64,000 bases of DNA, from assembly GCA_035623825.1 (NCBI GenBank), contig DASPSR010000007.1:1-64000 (forward strand), written 5' to 3'. The notes beneath the pieces were generated by a model that saw only the letters and a program-made list of their open reading frames with translations, had not been told where the DNA came from and ran no database searches. The translations under genes were made by a program, and so were the position numbers. The DNA is from Nitrospirota bacterium. GTDB lineage: Bacteria; Nitrospirota; UBA9217. Shown piece by piece: positions 35,836 to 59,774 of this stretch (the stretch's first letter is position 1; every line of letters begins with the position of its first letter).

Positions 35836-36288
35836 ATGGAGCCGGACCGAAGAGATTTTATCAAAAAAGCGCTTACAAGCGTGCTCGTCCTTCTTGGTCT
35901 TGGTTTCATGATACCGGGTCTTAAGATTCTCTCTCCTGCAGGCAGCCGCAATAAAGAGCTCGTTTATTTCCCCCTCGTCCCGGAGGGGGATGTCCCCAGG
36001 TCAGGAGTTAAGAAGAGCGAGCTAGCCTATGTCATCGCCGGCAAGGAGTGGAAGGCAAGGGTCTTTATTGTATCCACTTCGGACAGTTTGAGCGTATTCT
36101 CGGCAACCTGCACGCATCTGGGATGTCTCGTCAATTATAAGAAGGAAAAACGTGAGTTCGTCTGCCCATGCCACGGCGGGCGGTATGACCTGACCGGAAG
36201 GAATATTGCTGGACCTCCACCGGCCCCTCTTACTCGTTTTCCCATCAAGACGCAGGATGGGATGATTGTTGTCGGAATCAAGGTGTGA
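35836..36288 (+). CDS. Rieske [2Fe-2S] subunit of a menaquinol oxidoreductase
   Basis: Tat motif RRDFIK plus TM; CTHLGC and CPCHGG boxes; GPPPAPL. Confidence 0.93.
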   Translation: MEPDRRDFIKKALTSVLVLLGLGFMIPGLKILSPAGSRNKELVYFPLVPEGDVPRSGVKKSELAYVIAGKEWKARVFIVSTSDSLSVFSATCTHLGCLVNYKKEKREFVCPCHGGRYDLTGRNIAGPPPAPLTRFPIKTQDGMIVVGIKV

Positions 36289-36294
36289 TTGCGT

Positions 36295-36939
36295 ATGGGG
36301 TTTCTCAATTATTTGAACACGCGCCTGGGATTTACGAGCAGGCACCGGGGAGTGCTGGACAAGCCGGTGCCGGGATGGATCAATTATTTTTATTGCTTCG
36401 GCGGAATAACGTTCACCCTGTTCATTATACAGGTTCTCACGGGCCTGCTCCTCTCTTTGCACTATATACCAGCCGAGGCAGAGGCTTACCGGAGCATTCA
36501 GCGCCTGCACCTGAATGTTCCACTCGGCCATCTGCTCCGCTCATTACATCACTGGAGCGCGAACCTCATGGTCGTGATGGTAATGCTCCATATGCTCAGA
36601 GTATTCATCACCGGGTCATACAAGAATCCGAGAGAATTAAACTGGGTCGCCGGGGCTGTACTGCTCCTGTTGACATTGGGATTCGGTTTTACGGGCTACC
36701 TTCTGCCTTGGGACCAGAAAGCCTACTGGGCAACGGTGGTGGGGACAAATATGCTCGGCTCGATACCGCTCATAGGGCCCGTCCTCGCTGCATTCGTCCG
36801 AGGGGGCCCCGAGGTGACCGGTCAGACGCTCCTCCGGTTTTATAGCATGCACCTGCTTTGGTTTCCTATCTTGACGGCGTTCTTTCTCTGGGTACATTTC
36901 CACATCCTGCGAAGGCTGGGCATCTCGGGGGGAATGTGA
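36295..36939 (+). CDS. Cytochrome b6-like subunit (split cytochrome b, N-terminal part)
   Basis: YCFGG (heme ci Cys), four heme His, TGYLLPWDQ..YW and RFY..H motifs; ends GISG; start ATG 36295 or TTG 36289. Confidence 0.93.
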   Translation: MGFLNYLNTRLGFTSRHRGVLDKPVPGWINYFYCFGGITFTLFIIQVLTGLLLSLHYIPAEAEAYRSIQRLHLNVPLGHLLRSLHHWSANLMVVMVMLHMLRVFITGSYKNPRELNWVAGAVLLLLTLGFGFTGYLLPWDQKAYWATVVGTNMLGSIPLIGPVLAAFVRGGPEVTGQTLLRFYSMHLLWFPILTAFFLWVHFHILRRLGISGGM

Positions 36940-37049
36940 GCACATGATATGCATAGTAGGGCGTGAGGGATGCATAGAGATTGAGAAGCGTCTATAGTCT
37001 CAGCTGAGAGTATCGAACAGAGCCTCGTCACCCTGATGTTGGAGTACCG

Positions 37050-37433
37050 ATGAACAAAATCAGAGAAAAAAAGTTCTTCCCTTATTATCTCTTCGAGATC
37101 ACGCTTGTGGCCCTGTTCACGGTGGAGGCAGCTCTGCTGTTGGCTGTCTTGTTCCCGTCCACCGTCGGGCGAGAAATAGATTTTTCGGCGCAATATAGCC
37201 CAAGGCCCGAATGGTATTTCCTCTTTCTGTACCAGCTTACCAAATACTTTCCCGGGCGGTGGACGTTCGTGGGGGCAATTCTGCTGCCCGGGCTCGCCTT
37301 CAGCGTACTGCTCCTTTCGCCATTCCTGGATAGCAGTACGGAGCAATCCCTTGGGAAGCGAAGGGCCGCCGCGGTTATTGGCTTTGGTCTGCTAGCCGCA
37401 GTAGTGGCCTTGACTGTTGCATCCATGATATGA
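37050..37433 (+). CDS. Subunit IV-like (C-terminal part of split cytochrome b)
   Basis: FFPY, PEWYFLFLY Qo-site motif and PFLD; 3 TM. Confidence 0.88.
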   Translation: MNKIREKKFFPYYLFEITLVALFTVEAALLLAVLFPSTVGREIDFSAQYSPRPEWYFLFLYQLTKYFPGRWTFVGAILLPGLAFSVLLLSPFLDSSTEQSLGKRRAAAVIGFGLLAAVVALTVASMI

Positions 37434-37518
37434 ATGACATGAAGGAAAGTTTCGAATTGTAGGAGTTGGCTTCAAGGGCATTGGCCTCTCAGATAGGCAA
37501 GAACCAGCAGGGTGATGT

Positions 37519-38559
37519 GTGAAACATCTCATATCGATTATCATTCCCAATTATAACGGCAGTCGGACGATCGGAAAGTGCCTGGAGTCCATCTTTGCGT
37601 TCAACGACGATGATTGGGAGGTCATAGTCGTTGACGACTGTTCTGAGGACAGCTCAATCGACATTATCGGGAAATATCCCTGCAGGCTTATCCAGTTGGA
37701 GAAACACGCAGGCGCTTCAGCCGCACGGAATGCAGGAGCATTCAGCAGCAAGGGCGATGTTCTGTTTTTTATCGATGCTGATTGCCTCCTGAAAGATGAC
37801 ACCCTGTTAATCATTCGGAATCATTTGTCAGCGCAGCCTGCAGATGTGGTTATCGGCGGCACCTACACACCTGTGCCGCGGGATCCCGGATTTTTCAATC
37901 AATTTCAGTCTGCATTTATCAACTACTTTGAGACGAAAAACAGCAGCAGCCCTGATTACCTCGCCACACATGCCTTGGTTATTAACGCCGAAACCTTTAG
38001 GAAGTTCGGCGGGTTTAAAGAAAACTTCCTGCCTATTCTCGAAGATGTCGAGTTCTGTCACCGTCTGCGAAGGGCAGGTTACAGGCTGATTATGGATCCT
38101 GATCTCCAGGTCCGCCACATCTTTAACCATTCATTCATGAGGTCAATCCAGAATGCCGAAAAAAAAGCACGATATTGGACCATGTATTCCTTGGTGAACA
38201 GGGATTTATTTGCAGATTCGGGAGCGGCGTCTAGAGAACTTAAGCTCAACGGTGTCGCATGGCTGGCGACGGTTGTGCTTGCATTTCTCTCCCTCGTGTC
38301 CGGGCAACGGGAATTTCTGCTGCCCTTGCCCTTGCTGTGGGCATTCGGCGTTTTTGTCAACAGATATTTATTCAAGGCGTTTTATAAAGCAGGCGGCGCT
38401 TTTTTTGCTCTAGTGGCAGGGACGTACTATGTGATAGTATATCCTGCGGCTGTCTGGCTGGGAGCTGCCAGGGGGGCTGTACAATATTCCCTTCAGAATA
38501 AAATGAAGTCTGGCAAAGGCGGTCCCCGCGAGTTCTATAAGGGAACATCGAAGGAATAG
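37519..38559 (+). CDS. Glycosyltransferase family 2 with C-terminal TM helices
   Basis: SIIIP.YN, VVDDCSED, ARN.G, FIDAD and EDVE motifs. Confidence 0.9.
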   Translation: MKHLISIIIPNYNGSRTIGKCLESIFAFNDDDWEVIVVDDCSEDSSIDIIGKYPCRLIQLEKHAGASAARNAGAFSSKGDVLFFIDADCLLKDDTLLIIRNHLSAQPADVVIGGTYTPVPRDPGFFNQFQSAFINYFETKNSSSPDYLATHALVINAETFRKFGGFKENFLPILEDVEFCHRLRRAGYRLIMDPDLQVRHIFNHSFMRSIQNAEKKARYWTMYSLVNRDLFADSGAASRELKLNGVAWLATVVLAFLSLVSGQREFLLPLPLLWAFGVFVNRYLFKAFYKAGGAFFALVAGTYYVIVYPAAVWLGAARGAVQYSLQNKMKSGKGGPREFYKGTSKE

Positions 38560-38564
38560 ATACA

Positions 38565-39653
38565 ATGTACTCACCATTCAGATACGTACGGGACATATTC
38601 TGGAAGGGAAGGCCGATTCATCTAGCGTTTTTCATCACCAGACGGTGTAATGCCAAATGTCCCTTCTGCTTCTATCTCAGGTCGGGCGAACCCCCCGCTG
38701 ATTCCCTGCCCGAACTGTCGTTGGAGGAGATCGAGAGGACATCTTCCTCCCTAGGCAGTCTCCTGTGGCTGGCGTTTTCCGGCGGTGAGATTTTTCTTAG
38801 AGACGATCTCATTGAGATCGCCCGAATCTTCTACCGGAATAACAAACCGGCGATTATGCTGTTCCCGACGAACGGGCTTATGCCTGAGGTGATCCTTGAC
38901 AGGATAGAGACGATCGTTCGCTCATGTCCAAAGAGCGTTGTTGCCCTCAAGCTATCCGTTGATGGAGTAGGCGAGGCGCATGACACGATCCGCAATATGC
39001 CGGGAAGCTTTGACAAGACCCTGCAGACATATATGGCGGTTTCCGATCTTGTCGATCGGTACCCGAATTTCGAACTCGGAATAAATACGGTCTTCTGTTC
39101 AGAAAATCAAGAATCTATGGATGAGGTAATCGATTTCGTGCGGGAGCTCAAAAACATCAAAACGCACACAATTTCTCTCGTGAGGGGCAACCTTACTGAC
39201 AAGCGGTATGGCGTCGTAGATTCCAATAAATACCTTGATGCCGTGCGGAAGCTTGAAGAGAACCTAAAAGGAGGGAGGTCACCTGTATATCGTTTCAGGG
39301 GTGCACGCATCAAGGCAGCACAGGATATTCTTCAGCGCCGTCTCATCCACCAGACGATGCGCGAGAACAAAAGGATCATACCCTGTTTTGCAGGCAGGCT
39401 TAATCTGGTTCTCACGGAATGTGGCGATGTTTTCCCCTGCGAACTGCTTACGGAATCTTTCGGAAATGTGCGGGATTTCGGATATGACATAGGGAAAGTT
39501 GTCCGTTCAGAGAGAGCTTGCAGGGTGAATGGTTCGATAAGGGACAACACGTGCTACTGCACCCACGAATGTTATTTCATGACCAATATTTTGTTCAACC
39601 TTCAAATGTATCCCACTTTAATGAATGAATACTTGCAGCTCAGGACCAAATGA
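38565..39653 (+). CDS. Radical SAM enzyme with SPASM/twitch-like C-terminus
   Basis: CNAKCPFC and SGGE; C-terminal CFAG...VFPCE...CYCTHEC. Confidence 0.9.
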   Translation: MYSPFRYVRDIFWKGRPIHLAFFITRRCNAKCPFCFYLRSGEPPADSLPELSLEEIERTSSSLGSLLWLAFSGGEIFLRDDLIEIARIFYRNNKPAIMLFPTNGLMPEVILDRIETIVRSCPKSVVALKLSVDGVGEAHDTIRNMPGSFDKTLQTYMAVSDLVDRYPNFELGINTVFCSENQESMDEVIDFVRELKNIKTHTISLVRGNLTDKRYGVVDSNKYLDAVRKLEENLKGGRSPVYRFRGARIKAAQDILQRRLIHQTMRENKRIIPCFAGRLNLVLTECGDVFPCELLTESFGNVRDFGYDIGKVVRSERACRVNGSIRDNTCYCTHECYFMTNILFNLQMYPTLMNEYLQLRTK

Positions 39654-39747: not shown

Positions 39748-41094
39748 TTATTCTATTCCAAGTTCTTTCAGCCTTTTCCACAGAGTGACTCTGCTGATAC
39801 CGAGGTGCTTCGCCGTAAGGGTCCGGTTTCCTCTATTCAGGGTCAGCGCCGAGCGCAGCTTTTCCCTATCCAAAATCTGTTCACTTTCCTCAGCCTTTTT
39901 CTCCTGGAAAACATATTCAGGGAGGTCAGTGACTTCGATAGTGTCTCCTTTACAGGTGATAGTGCTATGTTCCAAAGCGTTGATCAGCTGCCGCACGTTA
40001 CCCGGCCACGAGAAGTTTTCGATGATCTCCATTGCTTCTGGGCTTATGCGCCGGATGTTCTTGCTGTTGATATGAGATATCTTTTTCAGGTAGTGGAAGG
40101 CGATGACCGGGATATCTTCAGTCCGATCCCGCAGCGGCGGAACCTTGATAAGAATGGAGTTAATACGGTAGAGGAGATCTTCCCGAAAGATGTCCGATTT
40201 GACGAGGGCGTTCAGGTCCTTATTCGTAGCTGAAATCAGCCGGATGTTGACGGGGATCGGATGGTGATCTCCCACGCGTTCCACGACCTTCTCTTCAAGG
40301 ACCCTCAGCAGTTTCACCTGCATGACTTTCGGCATGTCGCCGATCTCATCGAGGAAGATACTGCCGTCATGGGCGGCCTCGAACCTGCCCGTCCGGTCGC
40401 TCATGGCTCCGGTAAAGGAGCCTTTTTTGTGGCCGAAGAGCTCGCTTTCGAGGAGGTAGTCGTTCAGAGATCCGCAGTTCATAGCTACGAACGGGCCCTC
40501 CTTGCGTCTGCTTAGGGAGTGGATGGCCTGGGCCACGAGGTTCTTGCCGGTGCCGCTTTCGCCGCAGATTAGTACAGGTGCTTCGCTCCCGGCAGCGTTC
40601 CGGATCTGCTCGAACAGTTTCTGCATAGGGGCGCTCTTCCCGAGCAGACCCATGAACCAGTATTCCTGCCGCAGTTCCTGTCTCAGTTCTTCGAGCTCCA
40701 TCTCCTTCATGTACAGCGATGTGATATCCGTCATGGACTCCACTGCACCGATCATTTCACCATTCTCATCCCGCAGGACAGTGGCATTTTTCAACAGGTA
40801 GACGGCCCTTCCGTCACCGGAGCGTATCCGGCATTTCTTGTTCTCGATCACGCCCATCTTGAATATGCCGCAGTCTTTTCTCTTCCCCTCGTTGGTTAAG
40901 AAGACACAGGTGTCACTGTCGAGGATCGTGCACTGTTGCCCAATGATCTCTTCTTTTCGATATCCGGTAATATTTTCCGCAGCCCGGTTGAAGAACAGAA
41001 TATTCCCGTCCTTATCGACGATCATGAGCCCGTCTCGCATGGTTTCGAAAACGTTGATAAGAAAGTGTGGCTCTTTGAATAATTTTTCGATCAT
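39748..41094 (-). CDS. PAS-domain sigma54-dependent activator (bEBP 1)
   Basis: PAS; GESGTGK, ESELFGH.KGSFTGA, LDEIG and WPGNVR motifs; Fis HTH; no receiver domain. Confidence 0.94.
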   Translation of the reverse strand: MIEKLFKEPHFLINVFETMRDGLMIVDKDGNILFFNRAAENITGYRKEEIIGQQCTILDSDTCVFLTNEGKRKDCGIFKMGVIENKKCRIRSGDGRAVYLLKNATVLRDENGEMIGAVESMTDITSLYMKEMELEELRQELRQEYWFMGLLGKSAPMQKLFEQIRNAAGSEAPVLICGESGTGKNLVAQAIHSLSRRKEGPFVAMNCGSLNDYLLESELFGHKKGSFTGAMSDRTGRFEAAHDGSIFLDEIGDMPKVMQVKLLRVLEEKVVERVGDHHPIPVNIRLISATNKDLNALVKSDIFREDLLYRINSILIKVPPLRDRTEDIPVIAFHYLKKISHINSKNIRRISPEAMEIIENFSWPGNVRQLINALEHSTITCKGDTIEVTDLPEYVFQEKKAEESEQILDREKLRSALTLNRGNRTLTAKHLGISRVTLWKRLKELGIE

Positions 41095-41126
41095 TGATCC
41101 CCCTAAGGTGTAAAAAAATGAAACAT

Positions 41127-41187
41127 GTTAATTAGCATTTTGTTAATTGTTAATTTAACATGTTTAACGTTAATTAGCATTTTAACA
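41127..41187 (+). promoter_or_regulatory. Putative enhancer (UAS) repeats for the divergent bEBP
   Basis: Exact 15-mer GTTAATTAGCATTTT at 41127 and 41169 (42 bp apart), plus (T)GTTAA/TTAACA inverted half-sites. Confidence 0.65.
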
Positions 41188-41260
41188 CTTATTTGTCAAC
41201 ATAAAATTATAATGATTTTGTAAGGTATTGAAATATTGTAAAATTGGTTGTATTATAAGA

Positions 41261-41277
41261 TAGGCATGACATTTGCT
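41261..41277 (+). promoter_or_regulatory. sigma54 -24/-12 promoter for the usp-usp-usp-yeeE operon
   Basis: TAGGCATGACATTTGCT: GG(41263)-N10-GC(41275). Confidence 0.82.
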
Positions 41278-41330
41278 ATTGTATAAAGTAACTTGGAAAT
41301 ATACAATCCGCTGGTTAGGAGGAATGCAGC

Positions 41331-41915
41331 ATGAAAAAGATCCTGATAGCAGTAGATGATACAAAGGGATCAAAGAACGTACTTTCGGTCTTTCATAATT
41401 TTGTCCAGAAGCCGGTTGAGGTGGTTCTTCTTCATGTAGAAAAGTTACAGGGCAGGTCCCTGATGATTGACATGCTTGGCGACGCGGAAATGTCGACCCT
41501 GAAGGAAATGCTGAGTGGTACCGATTATAAAGTCGCTTTGGATAAGAGGGCGGAAAAGATTCTGGCATTTTACTCGAAAGAGCTAGCACAGGACGGTCTG
41601 GGAACGCTCAAGACCGTGAGGAGGGAAGGCGTTCCTTCTGAAGAAATCCTAAAGGTTGCTGGAGAAGAAGGCGCCGACATGATCATTCTTGGCCAGAGCG
41701 GAAAAAGAGGGTTCGACAGGTTTATCACCGGAAAAGTCGCGCGATATGTTGAGAACAACGCGAAGGTGCCTGTTCTGGTTGCAAAAAGACCGCTCATGTG
41801 TGAAGAACCATACACCAAGAGGGACGCCTGGGCCGCGGTTTCCGTTACATCGGCGATCATGCTTGCGTTGTTCCTTCTGGGCATCATACTTCAGAGGGGA
41901 TCGCTTATCCATTAA
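41331..41915 (+). CDS. Universal stress protein with C-terminal TM helix
   Basis: KKILIAVD, EG.P.EEIL..A and PVLVAK motifs; hydrophobic tail. Confidence 0.9.
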   Translation: MKKILIAVDDTKGSKNVLSVFHNFVQKPVEVVLLHVEKLQGRSLMIDMLGDAEMSTLKEMLSGTDYKVALDKRAEKILAFYSKELAQDGLGTLKTVRREGVPSEEILKVAGEEGADMIILGQSGKRGFDRFITGKVARYVENNAKVPVLVAKRPLMCEEPYTKRDAWAAVSVTSAIMLALFLLGIILQRGSLIH

Positions 41916-41997
41916 GTTTAATAACGTGTTCTATTGTGTTTCAATGACAGATAACTAAAAAATCAGATAACTAAAAGCAATGTAAGAGGAGGTTCGC

Positions 41998-42513
41998 ATG
42001 AAAAAGGTATTGATCGCAGTAGATGAAACAGAAGGTTCAAAATCAGTATTGTCGGTATTTCGCAATATGGTGCGTCCACCCGAAAGTGTGGTGCTAGTCC
42101 ATGTGCAGCAGCTCGAAGGCAAGTCCCTCATGATCGACATGCTAGGTGACGCGGAGCTGAACACGCTTCGGGAAGCTCTGAGAGGCACGGAGTTCAAAGA
42201 GGCGCTTGACCGGAAGTCGGAAAGGATCCTGAACTACTACCGTAAGGAAATTGAGAACGGCGGTTTGGTCAGCGTGAAGACGGTAATCAGGGACGGAATC
42301 GCCTCTGAAGAGATACTGAAGGTGGCCCAGGAAGAGGGTGTGGACCTCATTGTCACTGGCTATAATGGGAAGTCCGTCATGCAAAGGCTTTTCACCGGCT
42401 CACTCAGTAAAGAGATGGAGAAGAATGCACCGGTACCGGTCCTTGTGGCGAAGGAACCCACAGAAAAAGAGAAGTATGCTTGGACAGCCGCTGCCGCAAT
42501 GCATTCGAAGTGA
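41998..42513 (+). CDS. Universal stress protein
   Basis: Paralog of 41331; USP motifs. Confidence 0.9.
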   Translation: MKKVLIAVDETEGSKSVLSVFRNMVRPPESVVLVHVQQLEGKSLMIDMLGDAELNTLREALRGTEFKEALDRKSERILNYYRKEIENGGLVSVKTVIRDGIASEEILKVAQEEGVDLIVTGYNGKSVMQRLFTGSLSKEMEKNAPVPVLVAKEPTEKEKYAWTAAAAMHSK

Positions 42514-42633: not shown

Positions 42634-42719
42634 CAAAATACAATATCAAATCTTCAATGATTTCAGTGCCTACAGGGCCTGAAATAGCAGGCGTCCAAAT
42701 TATATTTAGGAGGGGGGGA

Positions 42720-43217
42720 ATGAAGAAGGTTTTAATGGCGATAGACGAGACAGCAGGTTCAAAATCCGTGCTGTCCGTCTATAAAACCATGGTTCAGGAA
42801 CCGGAAAACGTGATCCTGGTCCATGTGCAGCGGCTCGAGGGCAAGTCCATGATGAAGGATATGCTTGGCGAGTCCGAGTTGAAGGCCTTGAAGGAGTCGA
42901 TGCGGGGCACGAAGTACAAAGCGGAGCTTAACCGGAAGTCAGAAAATATTACGAGCTTCTACAAGAGGGAGATTGAGAACGGCGGTTCGGTCAAGGTGAC
43001 TACCCTGGTGAGGGAAGGCATCCCCTCGGAGGAGATTCTGAGGGTCGCCCAGGAGGAGAAGGTCGATCTGATTATTATGGGCCGCAACGGAAATACTGGG
43101 CTCCGACGATTTTTTGCCGGATGCGTTACTAAAGAAGTAGAACGAAGTGCAACAGCGCCCGTGCTTGTCGCAAAGACGGCTGGGTATAAAAAATTATTAC
43201 AATATGGCTGGAGGTAA
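42720..43217 (+). CDS. Universal stress protein
   Basis: Paralog of 41998; AGGAGGGG RBS before ATG 42720. Confidence 0.9.
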   Translation: MKKVLMAIDETAGSKSVLSVYKTMVQEPENVILVHVQRLEGKSMMKDMLGESELKALKESMRGTKYKAELNRKSENITSFYKREIENGGSVKVTTLVREGIPSEEILRVAQEEKVDLIIMGRNGNTGLRRFFAGCVTKEVERSATAPVLVAKTAGYKKLLQYGWR

Positions 43218-43221
43218 GCTT

Positions 43222-44378: not shown

Positions 44379-44597
44379 GCATCATATGATGAAATAAAAG
44401 GGGATTGAAGGATAATAAAGTCGTTTATAATACTTGTGTTTTTCACAGCCTGACAATTCGTCTTACCTTCTTTGCCAAGGTTCGTTCAAAAGCGCGTCCT
44501 TCCTGTAAAATTAGCTTTTTTTGTCTTGCTAATTCCCCTTTCAGGTGTTATTCTTTTTCTAAGTAACAAAGAACAAATCTCTAATAATTCTGCACAC

Positions 44598-49739: not shown

Positions 49740-49746
49740 ATAAATG

Positions 49747-51919: not shown

Positions 51920-52204
51920 CTATTTATATCCGCCTGCTGCCGGGGCTCCATAACCACCTGACTTGGGAGCCGGTGCTGCGCCATAGCCGCCAGATGCTGG
52001 CGGTGCTGCGCCATAGCCGCCAGATGCGTGTGTCGGTGCTGTACCATAGCCACCGGCTGCTGGCGCGGATCCCGAGCCATAGCCGCCTGCGGCGCTCTGG
52101 CCTGGTGAAGCTTTCGCTATCGTCTCATGCTGCTGGCTGTAAACCACCAGGAATCCAAGAATGCACACCACGATCGCAATGAGAATTACAAGGGGTGTTT
52201 TCAT
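51920..52204 (-). CDS. Small membrane-anchored/exported GGYG-repeat protein
   Basis: GAGGGAGG RBS; N-terminal hydrophobic helix; six (A/S)GGY(G/K) units. Confidence 0.8.
   Translation of the reverse strand: MKTPLVILIAIVVCILGFLVVYSQQHETIAKASPGQSAAGGYGSGSAPAAGGYGTAPTHASGGYGAAPPASGGYGAAPAPKSGGYGAPAAGGYK
51971..52027. repeat. Exact 27-bp tandem repeat (period 30) within the GGYG gene
   Basis: CGGTGCTGCGCCATAGCCGCCAGATGC at 51971 and 52001, flanked by degenerate copies. Confidence 0.9.
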
Positions 52205-52237: not shown

Positions 52238-52489
52238 TTAAGCCTTTTGGATTTTAAAGATGATCTTGCCGCCCTCGTGCTTCTTTTCCATAAGCTCATG
52301 CCCGCCCTGATCAAGCATCTGAACTATAGTTTCTGCCGATGAGGGGTTGTCGAAGATCATCTCGAGGACCTCACCGGAAGATATTTTCTCCAGGGATTTC
52401 TTGCAGTAGATCTGGGGATGGGGGCACACATAGCCGCATACGTCGAGCATATAGGTCCCATCACCTTTTTTTTCAAATTTCATAGCCAT
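52238..52489 (-). CDS. TusA family sulfurtransferase
   Basis: LDVCGYVCPHP (CPxP), GEVLE..DNPSS; directly follows yeeE. Confidence 0.92.
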   Translation of the reverse strand: MAMKFEKKGDGTYMLDVCGYVCPHPQIYCKKSLEKISSGEVLEMIFDNPSSAETIVQMLDQGGHELMEKKHEGGKIIFKIQKA

Positions 52490-52538: not shown

Positions 52539-53957
52539 TTAGAATTCGGCCATTTCCGCCGCCATCTTTCTTTCCGACCACCAGTTGAAGAACTTAACTC
52601 CTCCAAATGCACCGACCACCATGCCCAGACCGTAAAGCCATCCACTGGGATCGCCGCCAGCAACGCGAATGAAAAACGCGCCGATGTTACAGCCGAGTGC
52701 GGGACGCGAGCCCAGCCCCATCAGGGTGCCTCCGAGCAGACCCCAAACGATGAGCTCCCCTTTCGGCAGCTTGAACTTGAACTCCTTGCTCATGAGAGAC
52801 ATGATCATGGCGCCGAAAATGATGCCGAAGGACATCCAAAGGGCCGGGTTGCGCCAGAGTTCGGGGAGCCCGTTATTGACACCGAAGAACACGTTGTTCC
52901 GCATATTCCAGCCGAGCTTGTCGAGAACCCATGCTCCGAACTGTCCCTCCTGACTTGTGATATACCAGTAGCCCGGGTCGAACACCGTGCCCCTGATGCT
53001 GGTATCGGCGGCATGTCCCATCTTGGTGAGGAGCTGTCCGAAATTCGAGACACCGAACTTGATCTGCATGCCCTTCATGACGAAGATGTGGAGTCCTGCC
53101 GTGATGCCAATGATGACACCCATCAGGGTCGTCCTTTTGGAAGCGGTCAGCATGCTCCAGATCCCGGAGAACTCATCAGCGAAGCCGGTTGGCTTGCCAG
53201 TCTGCTTTGTTCGTTTTTTGATGAACCCTTTCCGGATATAGAAGGCATAGATGACGATAATCAGGATGAGGGCAGGAATGATCGCACTGATGAGCGCATC
53301 TCCGATGAAGTACTTTGTTACGCCGGGGAGGGCTCCTCCGATAGACTTGGTGTGTGAAAGCTGAATGGCGGGCTGGTCCCAGACGTACCCGGTGAGGTAG
53401 TAGTCGAACCAGGAATTGACCTTGTCGACGGGGAGGTTCTTTGCGGCAGAGGATGCCTTCCAGGAATCGGGAACCAGTGCCAGGAACGGTCCTCCGACAT
53501 TCACAAAGATAGCCTGGCCAAAGGATATCCCCAGTATGGAAAGTATCGAGGTGCCGTTGCCTTCGCCGATCTTGTACAGCGACCCCGATGCGCATCCGCC
53601 GGCAAGGACCATTCCCACACCAAAGATCATCCCCGATATCAGAGTGTGAACGCCGAACGGAGCCGGGTGGAAGGTGCTCATGTTGGTCGCTTGGAGCGTT
53701 GCCTGGATGATGCTGAAAAATATGAGCGCGACCAAAATGCCGACCGCCATTCTTGGAACGCCTGCGGCAAACAAATCCCTCGATGCCGACGCGAAACAGA
53801 ACCTGCCGTATTGAAGCATTATGCCGTAAGCAATTCCGAACCAGATGTATACTACGAGGTACATATAGTATACATTTGCCTTGTAATAAAGCAGGCTAAT
53901 GAGAATCAGCAAGCCTGTTATTACGAAGGCCCATATCTGATTTCTTCTTTCTTCCAT
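52539..53957 (-). CDS. YeeE/YedE family sulfur transporter, long form
   Basis: GRFCFAS, GGCASG and LGCNIG motifs; two large loop insertions relative to the 43222 copy. Confidence 0.92.
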   Translation of the reverse strand: MEERRNQIWAFVITGLLILISLLYYKANVYYMYLVVYIWFGIAYGIMLQYGRFCFASASRDLFAAGVPRMAVGILVALIFFSIIQATLQATNMSTFHPAPFGVHTLISGMIFGVGMVLAGGCASGSLYKIGEGNGTSILSILGISFGQAIFVNVGGPFLALVPDSWKASSAAKNLPVDKVNSWFDYYLTGYVWDQPAIQLSHTKSIGGALPGVTKYFIGDALISAIIPALILIIVIYAFYIRKGFIKKRTKQTGKPTGFADEFSGIWSMLTASKRTTLMGVIIGITAGLHIFVMKGMQIKFGVSNFGQLLTKMGHAADTSIRGTVFDPGYWYITSQEGQFGAWVLDKLGWNMRNNVFFGVNNGLPELWRNPALWMSFGIIFGAMIMSLMSKEFKFKLPKGELIVWGLLGGTLMGLGSRPALGCNIGAFFIRVAGGDPSGWLYGLGMVVGAFGGVKFFNWWSERKMAAEMAEF

Positions 53958-54264: not shown

Positions 54265-55962
54265 TTAGCGGGTAAAGGAGACATCTTTTCGATAGATTCT
54301 GACGCCGACACTGTATCGAAATATTTCTTCTCTCACATTGAACACTTTGGTTAATCGGTAGCCTTCGAGCCTCTGTGCAACAGGTTTCGGCAACGGGTCA
54401 TCTGAAGCGTCCAAAATTACAATGACGGGAACGCTTAAAAATGCATCTGGTTTGACCATATAGTATGCCGGGTTCCGGTATTCCCAGGTAAATCGGAGAG
54501 GAGACCGTTCAATCTCCTCGCGGGGTGGGATGCCTTCAGGCCTGTATTGATATCGTATCTGCTGGTCCGTGAAAAGGTCGAGAAGGGGAACAGCTACAGC
54601 AGGATTTACAACGGGCTCCTTCGAAGCCAGCGTTATGACTTCGACCTCCCCGGCTTCCATCCTATTGAGATACTCCCCGGCATGTTTAAGGTTAACGATG
54701 CTCATGCGTTCTGCAAGCGGCAGGTAGGCGAAGATTCCGATAACAAGCGATGTCGTGACTGTGCTGAAGACAATGAATCGTTTCAACGCATCCTGTTTGA
54801 TGACCTGCAGCCCGTACCCTGCCATAAGAGTAAGCATGGGAAAGACGGGTACTATGTATCGGATCCTCTTGATGTTAAAGAGGATGATGAGTAGGACGAG
54901 CCAGCAGGTAATTACATAATTTATGTCCCGTTTGCGGAATGCAACCACGAGGGAAGCAAGTGCTGATGCCGCAATGAAGGGGTGTGTCTGGAATAGAAAG
55001 GTCGAAACGAAGCTTTCTCCCCACCGGGCAAGGCCGCGTTGTTGAAACCCGTGCAGAAGTCCGACCTGTTCTGAAACCACGTCGAACTTTAAAATCAGCA
55101 TCACTCCCGAAACTGCCGCTGCCGTGAGCAGGATAACAACCCCTCTTAGAAGCGGGCGGCGGTCTTTCGACCATGCATGACCTACGATGTAAACGATCAA
55201 CACGACTCCGAGCACGGAGAGCATGAGCCAGGCAGAATACTTGGTGAGAACGGTGAGAACAATCGCCGCTATGGCACATGCAACTCTCGCGGACCGACCT
55301 TTGTTGAGCGCTTCGAGAAATGTGAACACCGACAGGGCGAGGAAAAACATGGTTGGTACATCCACCAGCATAAGCGGGACCTGGGTCAGCAGATAGGGAA
55401 TGCCGAGGAGCAGCATCCCGGCAGAAAATCCTGTTTCCCTGTCCCAAAGTGTTTTCCCGATGAGAGATGTCAGAACAACGGTCAGAGAGAACAGTACGGT
55501 CGTAAACATCTGGATAAAGATTCTGCTCTCACCGAAAAGTTTGAAGATTATTCCGTAGAGAAATGGTACGAGCGGCATATCCGTCCAGGCAAAGATCGTT
55601 CTGCCCCATTCTTTCAGAAAATAGCCGATGCCGTACACTTCGAGGTGCTTTGCCTGGGTAAAATATCGCGACGCGTCAACGATGATCTCTGATTCTTTCC
55701 AAAAAAGCGCGCTGGAAGCAAATGAGAGCGCCACAAGAAGCGGGATCTGATATCTATCGGAGACGGCGCCTCGCGACAGGAAAAAAGAAACGATGAGACC
55801 CGCGACGATACCGATGTAAATCCGTGAAATATCGACGCTGGCAAATACCCACGACCAGCTGAACAGGGCATTGTCGTCTGCATCGCGGAGGAGAATAAGG
55901 GCGACAAAGATCAAAAGACACACAACGGCGATGAGGATAAAACTGGCAGGTTTGTCTTGCAC
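54265..55962 (-). CDS. GT-C membrane glycosyltransferase (ArnT/PMT-like, family 39/83)
   Basis: Many TM; DASRY luminal loop, DMPL, LVDVP, TKY and RY..P..P motifs; GTG start inferred from upstream TATAAT. Confidence 0.78.
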   Translation of the reverse strand: MQDKPASFILIAVVCLLIFVALILLRDADDNALFSWSWVFASVDISRIYIGIVAGLIVSFFLSRGAVSDRYQIPLLVALSFASSALFWKESEIIVDASRYFTQAKHLEVYGIGYFLKEWGRTIFAWTDMPLVPFLYGIIFKLFGESRIFIQMFTTVLFSLTVVLTSLIGKTLWDRETGFSAGMLLLGIPYLLTQVPLMLVDVPTMFFLALSVFTFLEALNKGRSARVACAIAAIVLTVLTKYSAWLMLSVLGVVLIVYIVGHAWSKDRRPLLRGVVILLTAAAVSGVMLILKFDVVSEQVGLLHGFQQRGLARWGESFVSTFLFQTHPFIAASALASLVVAFRKRDINYVITCWLVLLIILFNIKRIRYIVPVFPMLTLMAGYGLQVIKQDALKRFIVFSTVTTSLVIGIFAYLPLAERMSIVNLKHAGEYLNRMEAGEVEVITLASKEPVVNPAVAVPLLDLFTDQQIRYQYRPEGIPPREEIERSPLRFTWEYRNPAYYMVKPDAFLSVPVIVILDASDDPLPKPVAQRLEGYRLTKVFNVREEIFRYSVGVRIYRKDVSFTR

Positions 55963-56352
55963 GGAGGCATTATAGCATTGGCTCGTATGAAGTTCTACGA
56001 TTTTCGACCCGAGCGTCAGTTGTTGCCGGCCGAAAAGGATGACGCCGAAAAGCACTGCTATTTTGGCTGACCGCTGCACGAGGTCATTTAGGTGCTCATG
56101 CTTATTCGAGAGATGGCCGCCCTTTGTCCCAGACGAACAGCATAAACGTGCATATTCTCCTCAATTCGACCAAAATAGTCGTCGGAGCATGCCTTGTGAC
56201 ATGTCCTTTGCGTTTTTTTTGAAGATCGCTTGCGGACAGCCCAAACGACGTGTCGGACAGATGAAAGTAATCTCGTAGATGCTGCTAATGGGCAGCTCGT
56301 TACTTGAACTCAATGACGCCGAAAATAGTGGGCTAGGAAACAAGATGAGGCC

Positions 56353-56386: not shown

Positions 56387-56887
56387 TCATTTTACGATTG
56401 GATAGTTCTTGCTGGCTGCGCCTTGGATGGCTTCCTGCATCTTCTGCCCTCCGCGATAGCCCTTGATCCATGCAGCGTAGCCGAAAGCCATGGTGTAGGC
56501 ATCGTAGCCGAGCGCGCGCAAGCCCACGATTGGGAGATTCTGTGTTTGGCCGGTTACGCAGACGACAATAACTTTCTTGTTCTTAGGGAGCTTCTTGAGA
56601 TTTTCGAGCTTAAAGATGTCCTGGACGGTTATCTGCATAGAACCGGGGATGTGCCCTTCACTGTACTCGGCCGGATTGGGCCGCACATCGACGATCACGA
56701 AGTCGGTCTTCTTCTCGTTGATCATGGCCATTACCTCGTCGGCCGTGATTTGCCAGAACTTGGCTTCTGGACCTTTGGATAGCACCGCATTCAGCTTTGC
56801 TGCCATATCATCTGCGGCAGACGCAGCAGGGATTGTGACAGCCACGGCAAGAATCAATACCCACATTACAAACAAGATCTTTTTCAT
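56387..56887 (-). CDS. Exported rhodanese-domain sulfurtransferase
   Basis: Signal peptide (..ASA-AD); DVR...EY..GHIPGS; active-site loop CVTGQT; AAGGAGG RBS. Confidence 0.9.
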   Translation of the reverse strand: MKKILFVMWVLILAVAVTIPAASAADDMAAKLNAVLSKGPEAKFWQITADEVMAMINEKKTDFVIVDVRPNPAEYSEGHIPGSMQITVQDIFKLENLKKLPKNKKVIVVCVTGQTQNLPIVGLRALGYDAYTMAFGYAAWIKGYRGGQKMQEAIQGAASKNYPIVK

Positions 56888-56961
56888 TGCCCCCTCCTTA
56901 AGTGTATGCATAATGTTCACCACTCGCTTCCTTCCGAGAAACGGCTTTTTTATTACGAACG

Positions 56962-57264
56962 TCACAGTATGATTACTCGGTCCGCCTCATGCTGCATGAC
57001 GGCGTTGTTGTACTGGCTCCCACAGACGATTTCCGATGGAAGGCCCTCCGATGTAACCCCCAGGTGCTTTGCGCTATGATCGCAGAAACTCACGGTTACC
57101 CCTGTTGTCCTGCACAATTCGGCGAATGCGGGTGTTCCAACGAGCTTTGTGCCAGCATCCATGTTAAAGAGCATGACGGTATGTCCCTTTGCAAGGGCCA
57201 CTTTGGTAATCCCCTGCACTGCGTCAAGATTTTTATTGGTGTTCACAAGTATGCCGAGCTTCAT
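56962..57264 (-). CDS. DsrE-like sulfur relay protein (copy A)
   Basis: LF.MD.G, FCDHS and CGSQYNNA...ADRV motifs. Confidence 0.82.
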   Translation of the reverse strand: MKLGILVNTNKNLDAVQGITKVALAKGHTVMLFNMDAGTKLVGTPAFAELCRTTGVTVSFCDHSAKHLGVTSEGLPSEIVCGSQYNNAVMQHEADRVIIL

Positions 57265-57348: not shown

Positions 57349-57516
57349 CTACCAGGATATAACTTTATCGCTGGAGAAAATGAGATCGACGATCTGGTCG
57401 TAGTTCTTGTTCTCTTTGAGATTCACGACTGTGACGTCATTTCCTTTTTTATGTACTTCCATGATCTTTTTTGCCGTGGCATCGAAATCCTGCTTTTGAA
57501 TGTATAAAATTTTCAT
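57349..57516 (-). CDS. Small DsrH/TusB-like conserved protein (55 aa, copy A; not in ORF track)
   Basis: Manual translation MKILYIQKQDFDATAKKIMEVHKKGNDVTVVNLKENKNYDQIVDLIFSSDKVISW; GAGGTG RBS; homologous to 59604..59774. Confidence 0.8.
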   Translation of the reverse strand: MKILYIQKQDFDATAKKIMEVHKKGNDVTVVNLKENKNYDQIVDLIFSSDKVISW

Positions 57517-57541
57517 TAGTCATCACCTCGTTCTGGTTACT

Positions 57542-57814
57542 TTAGTACGGAAGGATATGGTCATATTCCAGAAGTTTTTGCGCCAGTTCTTCAGTTGAAA
57601 TGTAATCCATTCCCGAGTTCTCTTTCGTGTTCGTGGCAAGCTTCATTCCCAGGTCCTTGATGGTCTCGAGATTCAGGTCGTTGTCATCGTTCTTTTCAAC
57701 CTTTCGGTCCAACACATATACATCGATGGTATCATCCATGAGCGTGATCCCCACAGACATCCTCAGGGCCTCACCTTGCCGGTCCCTGACGAGTACAGCA
57801 ATTTTTTTCCCCAC
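57542..57814 (-). CDS. DsrF-like conserved protein (copy A)
   Basis: KKIAVLVRDRQGEALR...EELAQKLLEYD.ILPY; AAGGAGG RBS before GTG; homologous to 59305..59583. Confidence 0.8.
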   Translation of the reverse strand: MGKKIAVLVRDRQGEALRMSVGITLMDDTIDVYVLDRKVEKNDDNDLNLETIKDLGMKLATNTKENSGMDYISTEELAQKLLEYDHILPY

Positions 57815-58263: not shown

Positions 58264-58292
58264 TTGACACGAGGGATGGTTTTTGTTAAGTT
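58264..58292 (+). promoter_or_regulatory. Putative sigma70 promoter of tusA with ~190 nt leader
   Basis: TTGACA-17 nt-TAAGTT. Confidence 0.55.
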
Positions 58293-58490: not shown

Positions 58491-58739
58491 ATGGCACTGA
58501 AAGATGAAGCACCGAAGCAAACGCTGGATACTCTTGGTAGGGTATGCCCCTATCCGCTGTTGTTGACCAAAAAAGCGCTGGAAAAGCTCGGAAGCGGCCA
58601 GATGCTCAAGGTTCTTTGCGATGCCCCTGCTTCTGCCGAGGACAGCATCCCGCGCTACTGCGAGAAAAACAAATTTGCCTTTGAAGCTGTGAAATTGGAA
58701 GACAAAGGCATGTGGGAGCTCTATATCAAGAAGTCATAA
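58491..58739 (+). CDS. TusA family sulfurtransferase
   Basis: LDTLGRVCPYPLL.TKKAL, L.VLCD.PAS; GAGGAGG RBS. Confidence 0.93.
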   Translation: MALKDEAPKQTLDTLGRVCPYPLLLTKKALEKLGSGQMLKVLCDAPASAEDSIPRYCEKNKFAFEAVKLEDKGMWELYIKKS

Positions 58740-58826
58740 GCGCGTGAGCAGTACCCTCATAGCTCTCAATGGTTTTATCCGACCGTGATCTGTTATTTTC
58801 CGGCATCCAAACTTGCCGCACCACAA

Positions 58827-58860
58827 GCCGGGCAGTGTTAATCTGCCCGGCACTCTTTAT
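58827..58860 (+). terminator. Hairpin/terminator after tusA
   Basis: GCCGGGCAG/CTGCCCGGC stem followed by ACTCTTTAT. Confidence 0.55.
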
Positions 58861-58971
58861 GCCTAAGACAGAATAAAACAGTTGTTAGGAAATCAATCTT
58901 GGCAGGTTAATGGCAATTATCGGTCCGATTCCATTGTTTTGCTATATTCTACGAGAGAGGAGGTGAAAATC

Positions 58972-59277
58972 ATGGCAAATGGAATGTTGGGTATGATGGT
59001 TACCAAGTATGAGAACCTGGAGCATATCACTGGAGTAGTTAAAGCGGCATCGGATGCAGGGCATCCGGTAGTGATATTCTTGACTGACGAAGGAGTGCGT
59101 TTCACGAGGGATCCAAAGTTTCTGGAATTGCTCAAGGTTCCCGGCGTTGAGCTGTCCTGTTGTGACCACAGTTGCGAGCTGATCGGGATTCATGAAAAGA
59201 CGGCTGGCATCTCGTACGGCAGCCAGTACAACAATGCCGGAATGCTGCATGACAGCACCCGGGTACTAGTGTTCTAG
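58972..59277 (+). CDS. DsrE-like sulfur relay protein (copy B)
   Basis: IFLTDEGV, CCDHSC and GSQYNNA motifs; GGAGGTG RBS. Confidence 0.82.
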   Translation: MANGMLGMMVTKYENLEHITGVVKAASDAGHPVVIFLTDEGVRFTRDPKFLELLKVPGVELSCCDHSCELIGIHEKTAGISYGSQYNNAGMLHDSTRVLVF

Positions 59278-59304
59278 CAAATATGAGAAGAAGGGGAGTT
59301 TTCT

Positions 59305-59583
59305 ATGGGAGATACGAAAAAAATAGCAGTGATCGTGAGGGACAGGCCGAGCGAGGCGCTCCGTGTTTCAGGAGGGCTTACCCTGGCCGACGATACAATA
59401 GATGTCTTTGTGCTGGACCGGAAACTTGACAAGAGCAATCCCGAAATCGCGACGCCACTTGAACTGGTCAACGAACTTGACCTGAAGATGTATTCCAATA
59501 ATCCCGAAAACGGGTACACGACAATCACACTTGAGGAGATGGCGAAGAAGCTCCTCGAATATGATTTAGTAGTGCCATACTAA
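59305..59583 (+). CDS. DsrF-like conserved protein (copy B)
   Basis: KKIAVIVRDRPSEALR...EEMAKKLLEYDLVVPY. Confidence 0.8.
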   Translation: MGDTKKIAVIVRDRPSEALRVSGGLTLADDTIDVFVLDRKLDKSNPEIATPLELVNELDLKMYSNNPENGYTTITLEEMAKKLLEYDLVVPY

Positions 59584-59603
59584 CATGATAGGGGGTTTCA
59601 ACC

Positions 59604-59774
59604 GTGAGGATCCTGCATATCTTAAAAACAACGCCTGATGCAAGCACAAAAAAGATCATGCAAGTGCACTCGGCAGGGCATCAGGTAAAGACCGTTGAGC
59701 TGTATAAGGGAGGCGTTTCCTACGACGGGCTTGTGGCGGAAGTATTCGCGCACGACAAAGTGTTCTGCTGGTAA
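59604..59774 (+). CDS. Small DsrH/TusB-like conserved protein (56 aa, copy B; not in ORF track)
   Basis: Manual translation MRILHILKTTPDASTKKIMQVHSAGHQVKTVELYKGGVSYDGLVAEVFAHDKVFCW; GTG start after AGGGGG. Confidence 0.78.
   Translation: MRILHILKTTPDASTKKIMQVHSAGHQVKTVELYKGGVSYDGLVAEVFAHDKVFCW

Follow-up and report, generated by a model that had tools for sequence, protein, structure and literature searches.

The window analysed here is the whole 64,000-nucleotide stretch that opens contig DASPSR010000007.1 (contig C13 of a Nitrospirota genome of 3.24 Mb, 89.65% complete), and the subject is a locus at 35,836 to 59,774 in which sulfur-transfer genes stand together with respiratory, regulatory and biosynthetic ones. 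Its core is the published YeeE-TusA-DsrEFH type II set, the YTD (YeeE/YedE-TusA-DsrE) cluster. Comparison with relatives shows the locus to be a merger of two different YTD-type clusters. The ancestral unit, by the same comparison, has the order Rieske-b6-IV-TusA-YeeE-DsrEFH type II; in the window it is split between subunit IV and TusA2 and has lost its own YeeE. The inserted block can be read as two units. One is a second YTD-type cluster (DsrF-like protein, small subunit, DsrE, rhodanese, GT-C glycosyltransferase, YeeE2, TusA1, GGYG-repeat anchor protein and the universal stress protein (USP) USP4), interleaved with a putative set for sugar tailoring and two-step membrane glycosylation: a flavoprotein resembling UDP-galactopyranose mutase (UGM), a B12-binding radical SAM enzyme (B12-rSAM), a second radical SAM enzyme of SPASM type (rSAM1) and a GT2 glycosyltransferase. 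The other, sigma54-controlled, holds activator A, USP1-3 and YeeE1, then activator B and a haem-Cache pseudo-kinase.

The entry of zero-valent sulfur, polysulfide or thiosulfate into sulfate-reducer-like anaerobes is an open point in models of disproportionation and of "reverse" Dsr oxidation; sulfur uptake steps and outer components are not identified in current models (PMC13490349). Concrete candidates for such a front end are the YTD-linked glycosylation and radical SAM set, the Gly/Tyr-repeat partner of an importer and, in one family, a Rieske/b6 complex. New here are the merger with the Rieske/b6 cluster, the nesting of the enzyme set within genomes that carry DsrE-II and dsrA, the attribution of the GGYG protein to YeeE2, together with a complex prediction that passed its mark, and the sigma54/USP/YeeE1 unit.

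Two YTD-type clusters in one locus

The gene map is based on an open reading frame (ORF) listing and on Pfam and NCBIfam scans of the window's ORFs. It runs without gaps over 35.8-59.8 kb, from the ATG of the Rieske gene (35836) to the stop of the last small DsrEFH-type gene (59774), with rho upstream and a pair of genes for 215-aa and 615-aa proteins downstream. All genes that a first-pass annotation of this DNA had listed between rho and this surface-protein pair are present. A genome search showed that dsrA/B (contig C38), dsrC, aprA, sat and rpoN are all encoded in the same genome. The features are as follows.

35836..36288, + strand: Rieske [2Fe-2S] protein with RRDF twin-arginine-like N-terminus (Pfam Rieske 43 bits; sole genome copy)
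36289..36939, + strand: cytochrome b6-type protein, the N-terminal part of a split cytochrome b (Pfam Cytochrome_B 186 bits)
37050..37433, + strand: subunit IV-like membrane protein, the C-terminal part of cytochrome b (Pfam Cytochrom_B_C 32 bits)
37519..38559, + strand: GT2 glycosyltransferase with hydrophobic C-terminal segments (Pfam Glycos_transf_2 102 bits; pairs with rSAM1 in relatives)
38565..39653, + strand: radical SAM enzyme rSAM1 with Cys-rich SPASM/twitch-like C-terminal part (Pfam Radical_SAM 45 bits; CX3CX2C and C-terminal cysteines)
39748..41094, - strand: sigma54 activator A, PAS-AAA-HTH, without receiver domain (Pfam Sigma54_activat 228 bits)
41125..41277, + strand: upstream repeats (GTTAATTAGCAT twice, TGTTAA/TTAACA), conserved in relatives; the region includes the sigma54 promoter
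41262-41277, + strand: -24/-12 sigma54 promoter AGGCATGACATTTGCT (GGCAT-N6-TTGCT invariant in 5/5 aligned relatives)
41331..41915, + strand: USP1 with hydrophobic C-terminal tail (Pfam Usp 78 bits; RNA-run contigs)
41998..42513, + strand: USP2 (Pfam Usp 68 bits)
42657..43217, + strand: USP3, start likely at 42720 (Pfam Usp 78 bits, match from residue 22)
43147..44319, + strand: YeeE1, YeeE/TsuA-type transporter of ordinary length, true start probably after 43217 (Sulf_transp 225 bits)
44472..45944, + strand: sigma54 activator B, paralogue of A (Pfam; inverted repeat I1, 73% over 947 nt)
45963..47609, + strand: dCache-HisKA-HATPase sensor with CFKCH motif and without phospho-acceptor His (Pfam, sequence)
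47712..48122, - strand: 136-aa multi-pass membrane protein downstream of B12-rSAM (no family above threshold; nearest relatives only)
48255..49775, - strand: B12-binding radical SAM enzyme, B12-rSAM (Pfam B12-binding 58.7 bits, Radical_SAM 84.3 bits)
49747..51159, - strand: UGM-like flavoprotein with amine-oxidase fold (NF005548 454 bits)
51359..51820, - strand: USP4 (Pfam Usp 80 bits)
51920..52204, - strand: GGYG-repeat single-pass membrane protein, predicted partner of YeeE2 (sequence, family alignment A8)
52238..52489, - strand: TusA1, CPHP motif (Pfam TusA 68 bits)
52539..53957, - strand: YeeE2, long (472 aa) YeeE-family transporter (Sulf_transp 138 bits; orthologues; partly in RNA-run contigs)
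54265..56079, - strand: GT-C fold glycosyltransferase (Pfam PMT_2 43 bits; ArnT-like fold)
56387..56965, - strand: exported single-domain rhodanese, start likely at MKKILF (Pfam Rhodanese 58 bits; signal-like N-terminus)
56962..57264, - strand: DsrE type II, copy A (Pfam DsrE 23.3 bits, cut-off 22.7)
57349..57516, - strand: 55-aa DsrEFH type II small subunit, copy A (family listing; 45-46% identical to copy B)
57542..57814, - strand: 90-aa DsrF-like subunit, copy A (model pLDDT 83.7; Foldseek YchN, DsrF)
58491..58739, + strand: TusA2, CPYP motif (Pfam TusA 72 bits; orthologue after subunit IV in relatives)
58827..58851, + strand: G+C-rich hairpin (9 pairs, 8 of them G-C; YeeE position in relatives)
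58972..59277, + strand: DsrE type II, copy B (Pfam DsrE 18.5 bits, under the cut-off; alignment A6)
59305..59583, + strand: 92-aa DsrF-like subunit, copy B (56% identical to copy A; alignment A3)
59604..59774, + strand: 56-aa small subunit, copy B (family listing, comparison with copy A)

Both transporters exceed the PF04143 cut-off of 27 bits (YeeE1 225, YeeE2 138), and YeeE1 also matches NCBIfam TsuA with 217 bits, under the cut-off of 400. TusA1 and TusA2 likewise exceed theirs (68 and 72 bits, cut-off 28.6) and carry the cysteine of the CPxP motif (CPHP, CPYP). The rhodanese has an N-terminal signal-like segment and a single cysteine, within CVTGQT. Each of the two trios consists of a DsrE-like protein of about 100 aa and partners of about 90 and 55 aa. 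Cys61 of DsrE copy A is invariant in 14 of 14 DsrE-II sequences (alignment A6) and both copies keep the cysteine; judging from the shared xCDHS context and the length, it probably corresponds to Cys67 of Electronema. In Foldseek, the model of the ~90-aa partner (pLDDT 83.7) matches YchN (DsrE/F-like) and DsrF (2hy5_B, E 6e-4, TMq 0.76).

DsrEFH type II (the dsrE-like gene of YTD plus two hypothetical genes) has been characterised as a sulfur transferase whose active cysteine is Cys67 in Electronema; it passes sulfur in vitro from TusA to DsrC, and occurs in 985 genomes, mostly with reductive dsrAB (PMC13293266, Plum-Jensen et al. 2026). The window shares with this system a YeeE-family transporter, TusA with the CPxP cysteine, a ~100-aa DsrE with a conserved cysteine, two small partners, one of them predicted to fold like DsrF, and a host genome with dsrAB, dsrC, aprA and sat. 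It differs in having two diverged copies with differing gene orders, one of them without its own YeeE; genes for GT-C, the flavoprotein, two radical SAM enzymes, GT2, a USP, the rhodanese and the GGYG anchor are interspersed in one copy, and one copy directly follows the Rieske/b6/IV operon in relatives. The first-pass annotation had named YTD as associated with sulfur-disproportionating bacteria. The core is indeed YTD, but its DsrE trio is now characterised as DsrEFH type II, and the same source disputes YTD as a disproportionation marker (PMC13293266). At least three architectures of the cluster occur, differing in their accessory genes, which is itself a reason for caution against YTD alone as a marker.

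A duplicated core had also been proposed. There are two YTD copies, but trios A and B are only 38-56% identical and their gene orders differ, so they are old paralogues and no recent duplication; what looked like duplication is the merger of two different YTD-type clusters. This was seen by comparison with six fetched loci from four genera of the window's family, one of them the window's own genus. All six have, in the interval from rho to the 215/615-aa pair, a compact one-strand cluster of ~4.3 kb (Rieske-b6-IV-TusA-YeeE-DsrE-92 aa-56 aa). TusA2 and copy B are the window's orthologues of the TusA and trio in this cluster (identity 68-91% for DsrE, 78-89% for the 92-aa and 62-77% for the 56-aa protein), the closest DsrE being that of the same-genus genome G002 (91%). 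In the window, ~21 kb (37.5-58.4 kb) sits between subunit IV and TusA2, and relative to G002 this block is an insertion. TusA2 leads directly to DsrE copy B with no YeeE between them, unlike in six of six fetched relatives; the YeeE of the compact cluster is gone, and of the proteins in this genome YeeE1 comes nearest to it (49% identity).

The Rieske protein and the split cytochrome b, identified by Pfam, are components of a b6f/bc complex, and the set is the only one in the genome. The b6-type protein stays below the cut-offs of both NCBIfam ExtP (252.7 bits, cut-off 290) and cytochrome b6 (246 bits, cut-off 325). As in b6f-type complexes, the Rieske protein has a twin-arginine-like leader and cytochrome b is divided into b6 and subunit IV; unlike in b6f and bc complexes, a gene for a c-type subunit (f, c1) is absent from the locus. 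The Geobacter ext cluster reportedly includes a rhodanese-like protein, ExtH. An ExtP/ExtQ cytochrome b pair belongs to that cluster (extHIJKLMNOPQS; PMC5877670). Likeness to this pair lies in the near-threshold ExtP match and the site beside chalcogen-handling genes; the difference is the YTD linkage, in one family only.

The spread of this linkage was followed in sample 2, 201 evenly drawn Nitrospirota genomes independent of the locus sample described below. Its tallies were made by hand from tables, and since relatives are non-independent no test statistic was placed on the counts. A full-length cytochrome b6 orthologue at >=73% identity occurs in 32 of the 201 genomes, all 32 in the window's family. 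DsrE-II lies within 3.5 kb of it in 17 and within 30 kb in 6 more (23 in total), and in 9 of the 32 it is on another contig than b6 or not found. In G004, Rieske/b6/IV and TusA2 lead one co-directional array that includes the whole second cluster. In locus L072, 6.5 kb separate the cluster from a distant Rieske/b6/IV set with 29-40% identity.

Two observations concern the edges and joints of the compact cluster. The G+C-rich hairpin at 58827-58851 lies between TusA2 and DsrE copy B, exactly at the vacated YeeE place, and may be a scar or an attenuator. The flanking pair (60008-62499, - strand) comprises a 215-aa outer-membrane beta-barrel of the MXAN_2562 family and a 615-aa CFI-box-CTERM/fn3 protein. 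It stands beside the compact Rieske-YTD cluster in three of the six fetched relatives, and also in G001 and G007; in a fourth fetched relative, where the stretch end cuts the locus, only the 215-aa gene is visible. The pair could be an outer-membrane entry route or merely inherited gene order.

Glycosylation and radical SAM genes beside the sulfur genes

Linkage of the enzyme genes was followed in sample 1, the best 80 of 372 loci anchored on B12-rSAM, with gene positions mapped by tblastn. By record title, 79 of the 80 are Nitrospirota, Nitrospirae, Thermodesulfovibrionales, Ca. Sulfobium or Dissulfurispiraceae, and one is "uncultured bacterium". Upstream of B12-rSAM, in the 57 loci with >=8 kb on that side, the flavoprotein gene is adjacent in 57, GT-C is found in 50, any YeeE in 49, DsrE-II in 35 and rhodanese in 16; the YeeE is the long type with TusA and USP in 25 loci and of ordinary length in 24. 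Downstream, of the 57 loci with >=6 kb, 21 have rSAM and 18 have GT2. The commonest full order (L040, L055, L067, L081) is DsrE-small subunit-rhodanese-GT-C-YeeE2-TusA-GGYG-USP-flavoprotein-B12rSAM, followed 0.8-2.2 kb past B12rSAM by opposite-strand rSAM and GT2 and then a DsrF-like gene. Genes of one sulfur-transferase complex therefore flank the enzyme genes on both sides. In 24 of 25 YeeE2-type loci, TusA1 and the anchor protein precede USP4.

In sample 2, a B12-rSAM orthologue (E 1e-100 or better) occurs in 38 of 201 genomes, from 13 of 26 families. A DsrE-II profile match was found in all 38 of these vs 50 of the 163 others, and dsrA in 35 vs 67 of 163; the three without dsrA are 70, 77 and 85% complete, and 99 of the 201 genomes gave no dsrA match. 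In 20 of the 38 (9 families), the DsrE-II gene is on the same strand, upstream and at most 17 kb away; most of the others are fragmented assemblies. Judged by gene order and co-occurrence, the YTD/DsrEFH-II genes and the glycosylation/radical SAM set appear to form a conserved, nested association. The first-pass annotation had proposed to check its view by synteny in other genomes and by co-occurrence with dsrAB, aprAB and sat. Co-occurrence was borne out, including in the window's own genome, which has dsrAB, aprA and sat. The synteny expectation held for part of the set: GT-C, flavoprotein, B12-rSAM, rSAM, GT2, USP4 and rhodanese stand beside yeeE/tusA/dsrE in many genomes, but Rieske/b6/IV does so in its own family only, sigma54 activator A, USP1-3 and YeeE1 in the nearest genera, and activator B with the pseudo-kinase at four loci.

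The enzymes themselves are distant from named families. The flavoprotein belongs to NF005548 (454 bits, cut-off 389), a family whose sole name is "hypothetical protein"; its alignment with the eukaryote-type UGM 4dsg spans the full length (residues 7-451, E 2.9e-25), and it scores 54.8 bits against the UGM family TIGR00031, whose cut-off is 303.75. B12-rSAM reaches 197.6 bits against HpnJ (cut-off 577.6) and matches the diol dehydratase AprD4 (6fd2, E 3.7e-25). HpnJ, AprD4 and UGM are thus the best family or structure matches of the two enzymes, which differ from HpnJ and UGM in lying far under both family cut-offs. For rSAM1, all NCBIfam matches are far under cut-offs. A hopanoid reading of the biosynthetic genes (HpnE/H/I/J) was rejected, every score falling far short of its family cut-off.

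The GT-C protein gave no match by sequence to solved chains. Its model (pLDDT 71, pTM 0.75) has as best Foldseek match ArnT with bound undecaprenyl phosphate (5f15, E 3e-7, TMq 0.47), followed by STT3, PglB, ALG9/12, AftD, DPY19 and PMT. In the alignment, acidic residues of the first periplasmic loop are conserved, and R65, D68 and N70 are invariant. The GT2 protein has hydrophobic C-terminal segments and scores 23 bits against NCBIfam ArnC (cut-off 529). No flippase candidate was identified among the locus ORFs. ArnC/ArnT and GtrB/GtrC are two-step lipid-linked periplasmic glycosylation systems. The window resembles the ArnC/ArnT type in pairing a GT2 that has membrane segments with a GT-C whose best solved match is ArnT; it differs in that two radical SAM enzymes and a UGM-like flavoprotein accompany the pair, and in that the pair stands in the midst of sulfur-relay genes. 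On these sequence and fold matches, the enzymes together are read as a putative sugar-tailoring line feeding a lipid-linked, two-step glycosylation at the periplasmic face.

The GGYG protein of the window has 94 aa and six GGYG repeats, with no other copy in the genome. Its family shares a conserved N-terminal helix (MKTPLVILIAIVV.ILGFL.VYSQQH), 4-10 (A/P)-rich GGYG repeats and the end GGYGK (alignment A8). The gene follows TusA in 20 of 30 long-YeeE loci and is found in 0/27 shorter-YeeE loci and 0/8 loci without YeeE, where the enzymes persist; in G007 it is kept beside YeeE2-TusA1, ~210 kb away from the enzyme genes. From this distribution and arrangement it follows that the GGYG protein goes with the transporter and not with the enzymes. 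A predicted YeeE2-GGYG complex scored 0.81 (median of 3 runs), the best of 3 controls 0.00; of 157 solved complexes 116 attained the score mark, as did 2 of 215 mismatched pairs, rough counts given the use of our own alignments. The runs share >=35% of contacts, with partner pLDDT 45-47, and the interface is predicted between anchor residues 2-26 and YeeE2 residues 7-46, 289-300 and 385-390. In the model, the anchor helix is parallel to the first YeeE2 helix, which begins at the charged MEERRNQ, and the GGYG tail is for this reason probably periplasmic. The protein is thus predicted to be a single-pass anchor that binds YeeE2. In composition only, it recalls sulfur globule proteins, small exported Gly/Tyr-repeat proteins of organisms with periplasmic zero-valent sulfur; it differs in being membrane-anchored, in having a predicted YeeE partner and in belonging to a Dsr-type anaerobe, not a purple sulfur bacterium.

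Variants of these proteins were seen in other loci. In two species (L091:3573-4679, L097:6810-7916), a GGYG-family anchor is fused to a 368-aa double-rhodanese-like protein, and in remoter relatives the GGYG protein gives way to two small anchors whose tails are of the DYYKDLYK type. In the nearest relative, G001 (L007/L008), the YeeE1, sensor-kinase and GGYG genes look fragmented or frameshifted, which may be assembly error or decay. In ten shorter-YeeE loci (L032, L044, L045, L047, L082, L084, L089, L096, L098, L100), YeeE is followed, in place of a TusA, by a 75-83-aa protein encoded between the YeeE and flavoprotein genes, with a conserved MSGC (MSGF/MSGY in two loci) and a C-terminal cysteine pair (CCV, CGC etc.); this protein may act as a carrier like TusA but lacking CPxP.

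Proposed working of the locus and its rivals

The locus is probably a composite sulfur-acquisition region of a member of the Nitrospirota that bears Dsr, Apr and Sat. In the working proposed here, zero-valent or thiosulfate-type sulfur would be caught in the periplasm by the rhodanese and the Gly/Tyr-rich anchor tail on YeeE2; YeeE2 would import it, TusA would take it over, and DsrEFH type II would hand it to DsrC/DsrAB. GT2 would put a radically tailored sugar on polyprenyl phosphate, and GT-C would transfer it at the periplasmic face to an acceptor in the service of sulfur uptake; candidates for this acceptor are the anchor tail, some other molecule of the envelope and the surroundings of the transporter. 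The Rieske/b6 complex would tie the process to the quinone pool, and YeeE1, the USPs and the sigma54 activators would form a sensing branch. Capture, import, relay, quinol electron transfer and envelope synthesis may act together as a chain, as the first-pass annotation had supposed.

A rival reading is that the neighbours have no shared function, ordinary envelope glycan genes and a general quinol oxidase having come to lie beside sulfur genes through inherited order or island-like accretion. This is unlikely but has to be taken seriously: the enzyme set stands without YeeE or DsrE in 8 of 57 loci, the ~21-kb block is inserted relative to G002, rho and the surface-protein pair, which have no known sulfur tie, are conserved beside the compact cluster, and the window's genome has a single Rieske/b6/IV set, as for a housekeeping complex. 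Chance neighbourhood is harder to reconcile with a YeeE between GT-C and flavoprotein in 49 of 57 loci, involving two YeeE types, with DsrEFH subunit genes on both flanks of the enzyme genes, with an enzyme set confined to DsrE-II genomes (38/38) and nearly so to those with dsrA (35/38) in a sample where 99 genomes lack a dsrA match, or with the G004 array, where Rieske/b6/IV heads the whole second cluster in one direction.

Several points nevertheless weigh against a sulfur-acquisition region that works as one. The GT-C-flavoprotein-B12rSAM set occurs without nearby YeeE or DsrE in the 8 loci just named, the enzymes persist where the GGYG protein is missing, and the same-genus genomes G002 and G003 gave no B12-rSAM match. 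Linkage of Rieske/b6 with YTD was not found outside the window's own family in the loci and genomes examined, and shared ancestry could explain it, because the unrelated rho is conserved beside the cluster too. No gene for cytochrome f, c1 or any other c-type protein was found in the locus, where the only CxxCH is that of the Cache sensor, and an intergenic scan showed no sigma54 promoter before the YeeE2, GT-C, DsrEFH or flavoprotein genes. The comparison genomes are all Nitrospirota, the relatives are not independent, and the loci are the best 80 of 372.

A more specific form of the sulfur-acquisition reading is speculative and, on balance, doubtful. YeeE2, the GGYG anchor, the rhodanese and GT2/GT-C might constitute one periplasmic uptake apparatus for insoluble or chain-form zero-valent sulfur, redox-coupled in the window's family to a Rieske/b6 complex of its own that lacks cytochrome c. 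Taken jointly with this, and just as doubtful, a Gly/Tyr brush, like a sulfur globule protein and possibly glycosylated, would be tethered at the importer mouth and feed TusA, followed by DsrEFH type II and then by DsrC. If true, it would be an unrecognised front end of Dsr-based sulfur oxidation and disproportionation in anaerobes.

The radical SAM enzymes and glycosyltransferases might instead mature the GGYG protein itself into a modified or glycosylated peptide, which would then be the point of the system. The GGYG gene does lie inside the cluster, the radical SAM enzymes have sub-threshold matches to peptide maturases (ApyD 110, TIGR03975 77, AlbA 49 and StsB 50 bits), and GT-C enzymes of the PMT/STT3 kind, seen among the fold matches, glycosylate proteins. 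Yet the enzymes are kept at loci where no GGYG protein is encoded nearby (0/27, 0/8), in G007 the two lie ~210 kb apart, the best solved relatives of the enzymes (UGM, AprD4) act on sugars, and the anchor is predicted to bind YeeE2, all of which makes such maturation improbable. The narrower idea that the GGYG tail is an obligatory enzyme substrate was set aside on the same grounds. That the transport and relay genes handle selenium (or tellurium) and not sulfur is very improbable. The best NCBIfam names do point that way (YeeE2 as YedE/FdhT, 122 bits, cut-off 350; TusA1 as YedF, 46.8, cut-off 79; cytochrome b6 as ExtP of a selenite/tellurite operon, 252.7, cut-off 290), but all three scores fall under curated cut-offs, the genome has dsrAB, dsrC, aprA and sat, and the enzyme set and DsrE-II follow dsrA across the phylum. 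DsrEFH type II, moreover, passes sulfur to DsrC in vitro (PMC13293266).

A literature search gave no paper joining YedE/TusA with radical SAM enzymes and glycosyltransferases in Nitrospirota. The terms "radical SAM" and "glycosyltransferase" are absent from the main text of PMC13490349 and PMC9751629; "Rieske" and "cytochrome b" are absent from the main text of PMC13293266, and "cytochrome b", "radical SAM" and "glycosyl" from that of PMC12998232. Supplementary neighbourhood figures of these papers could bear on the matter. As far as searched, the YTD-glycosylation and YTD-Rieske/b6 linkages are undescribed.

Regulatory genes and further observations

Activators A and B (PAS-AAA-HTH) are 73% identical at the DNA level over 947 nt. 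The USP1 operon is the only one in the locus that combines a sigma54 promoter (AGGCATGACATTTGCT), a divergent activator (A) and rpoN in the genome (448 bits, contig C7). The promoter lies 54 nt before USP1; its core GGCAT-N6-TTGCT is fixed in five of five relatives, the spacer being otherwise 70% identical, and TGTTAA/TTAACA-type repeats are conserved upstream of it, next to divergent activator A. Elsewhere the GTTAATTAGCAT repeat does not exceed chance (4 matches vs 3.4 expected). Among intergenic GG-N10-GC sites the USP1 promoter scores 10/12 and three others upstream of genes 8/12; a further 10/12 sigma54-like site at 58900 lies inside the longest DsrE_B frame, 72 nt before the likely start. 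A single sigma54 regulon for the whole locus is not supported, TGGCAC-N5-TTGCW (2 mismatches) giving 27 matches vs 29 expected.

The four USPs are mutually 41-59% identical, and no other match in the genome reaches 37%. USP2 and USP4 keep G-x2-G-x9-G-S, the signature of ATP binding in proteins of the UspFG type; in USP1 and USP3 its last position differs. The sensor carries CFKCH in its Cache domain, and Ser replaces the phospho-acceptor His, so that its earlier label of heme pseudo-kinase stands. Its H-box reads TSEIGNPL in the window, in G001 (L023, L007) and in L024; among orthologues, L037 has AHEIGNPL, the nearest to keep the His, and L101 has AYEIGNPL. The sigma54A/USP1-3/YeeE1 unit is common to the nearest genera only, and activator B with the pseudo-kinase has counterparts >55% identical only at G001, L024, L037 and L101 among the loci examined.

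SoxT-type YeeE proteins serve sulfur import and signal transduction, as one study describes (PMC11582611). YeeE1 resembles them in standing in a regulator-controlled operon apart from the import and relay genes; it differs in that the regulators are PAS-domain sigma54 activators and the operon begins with three USPs. Among the scanned locus ORFs, Pfam detected no SoxR/sHdrR-type repressor. By analogy, the YeeE1 operon would suit a sensing role.

A scan of 41-60 kb for sigma70 promoters and terminators (29 vs 20.3, sd 5.5, and 24 vs 19.5, sd 4.3) was not above shuffles and for this reason was not used to define operons. No riboswitch or known RNA reached gathering score over 33-63 kb. A conserved block upstream of YeeE2 (53958-54264) with repeated GCAA motifs (TGTTGCAAAATCATGCAATTACGCAACAT...AAATAGTGCTTG) is present in five of six relatives and may be an operator for some regulator.

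One peat metatranscriptome run, kept as contigs, contains pieces identical to the window over 41304-41992 (USP1, starting just past the promoter), USP2 and the USP2/USP3 junction; other contigs match the GGYG/TusA1 junction and two parts of YeeE2. Such contigs show presence in the RNA library, not levels, ends, strands or induction, and nothing can be concluded from the stretches that lack contigs, which run from YeeE1 to the flavoprotein and from GT-C to DsrEFH copy B. In a DNA run, coverage of the stretch is even.

Contig C14 of the same genome has a second YeeE-family frame with an in-frame TGA (about 12998-14103) and a DsrC/TusE-like frame with an in-frame TGA (about 19758-20071); these are possible selenoproteins, split genes or errors.

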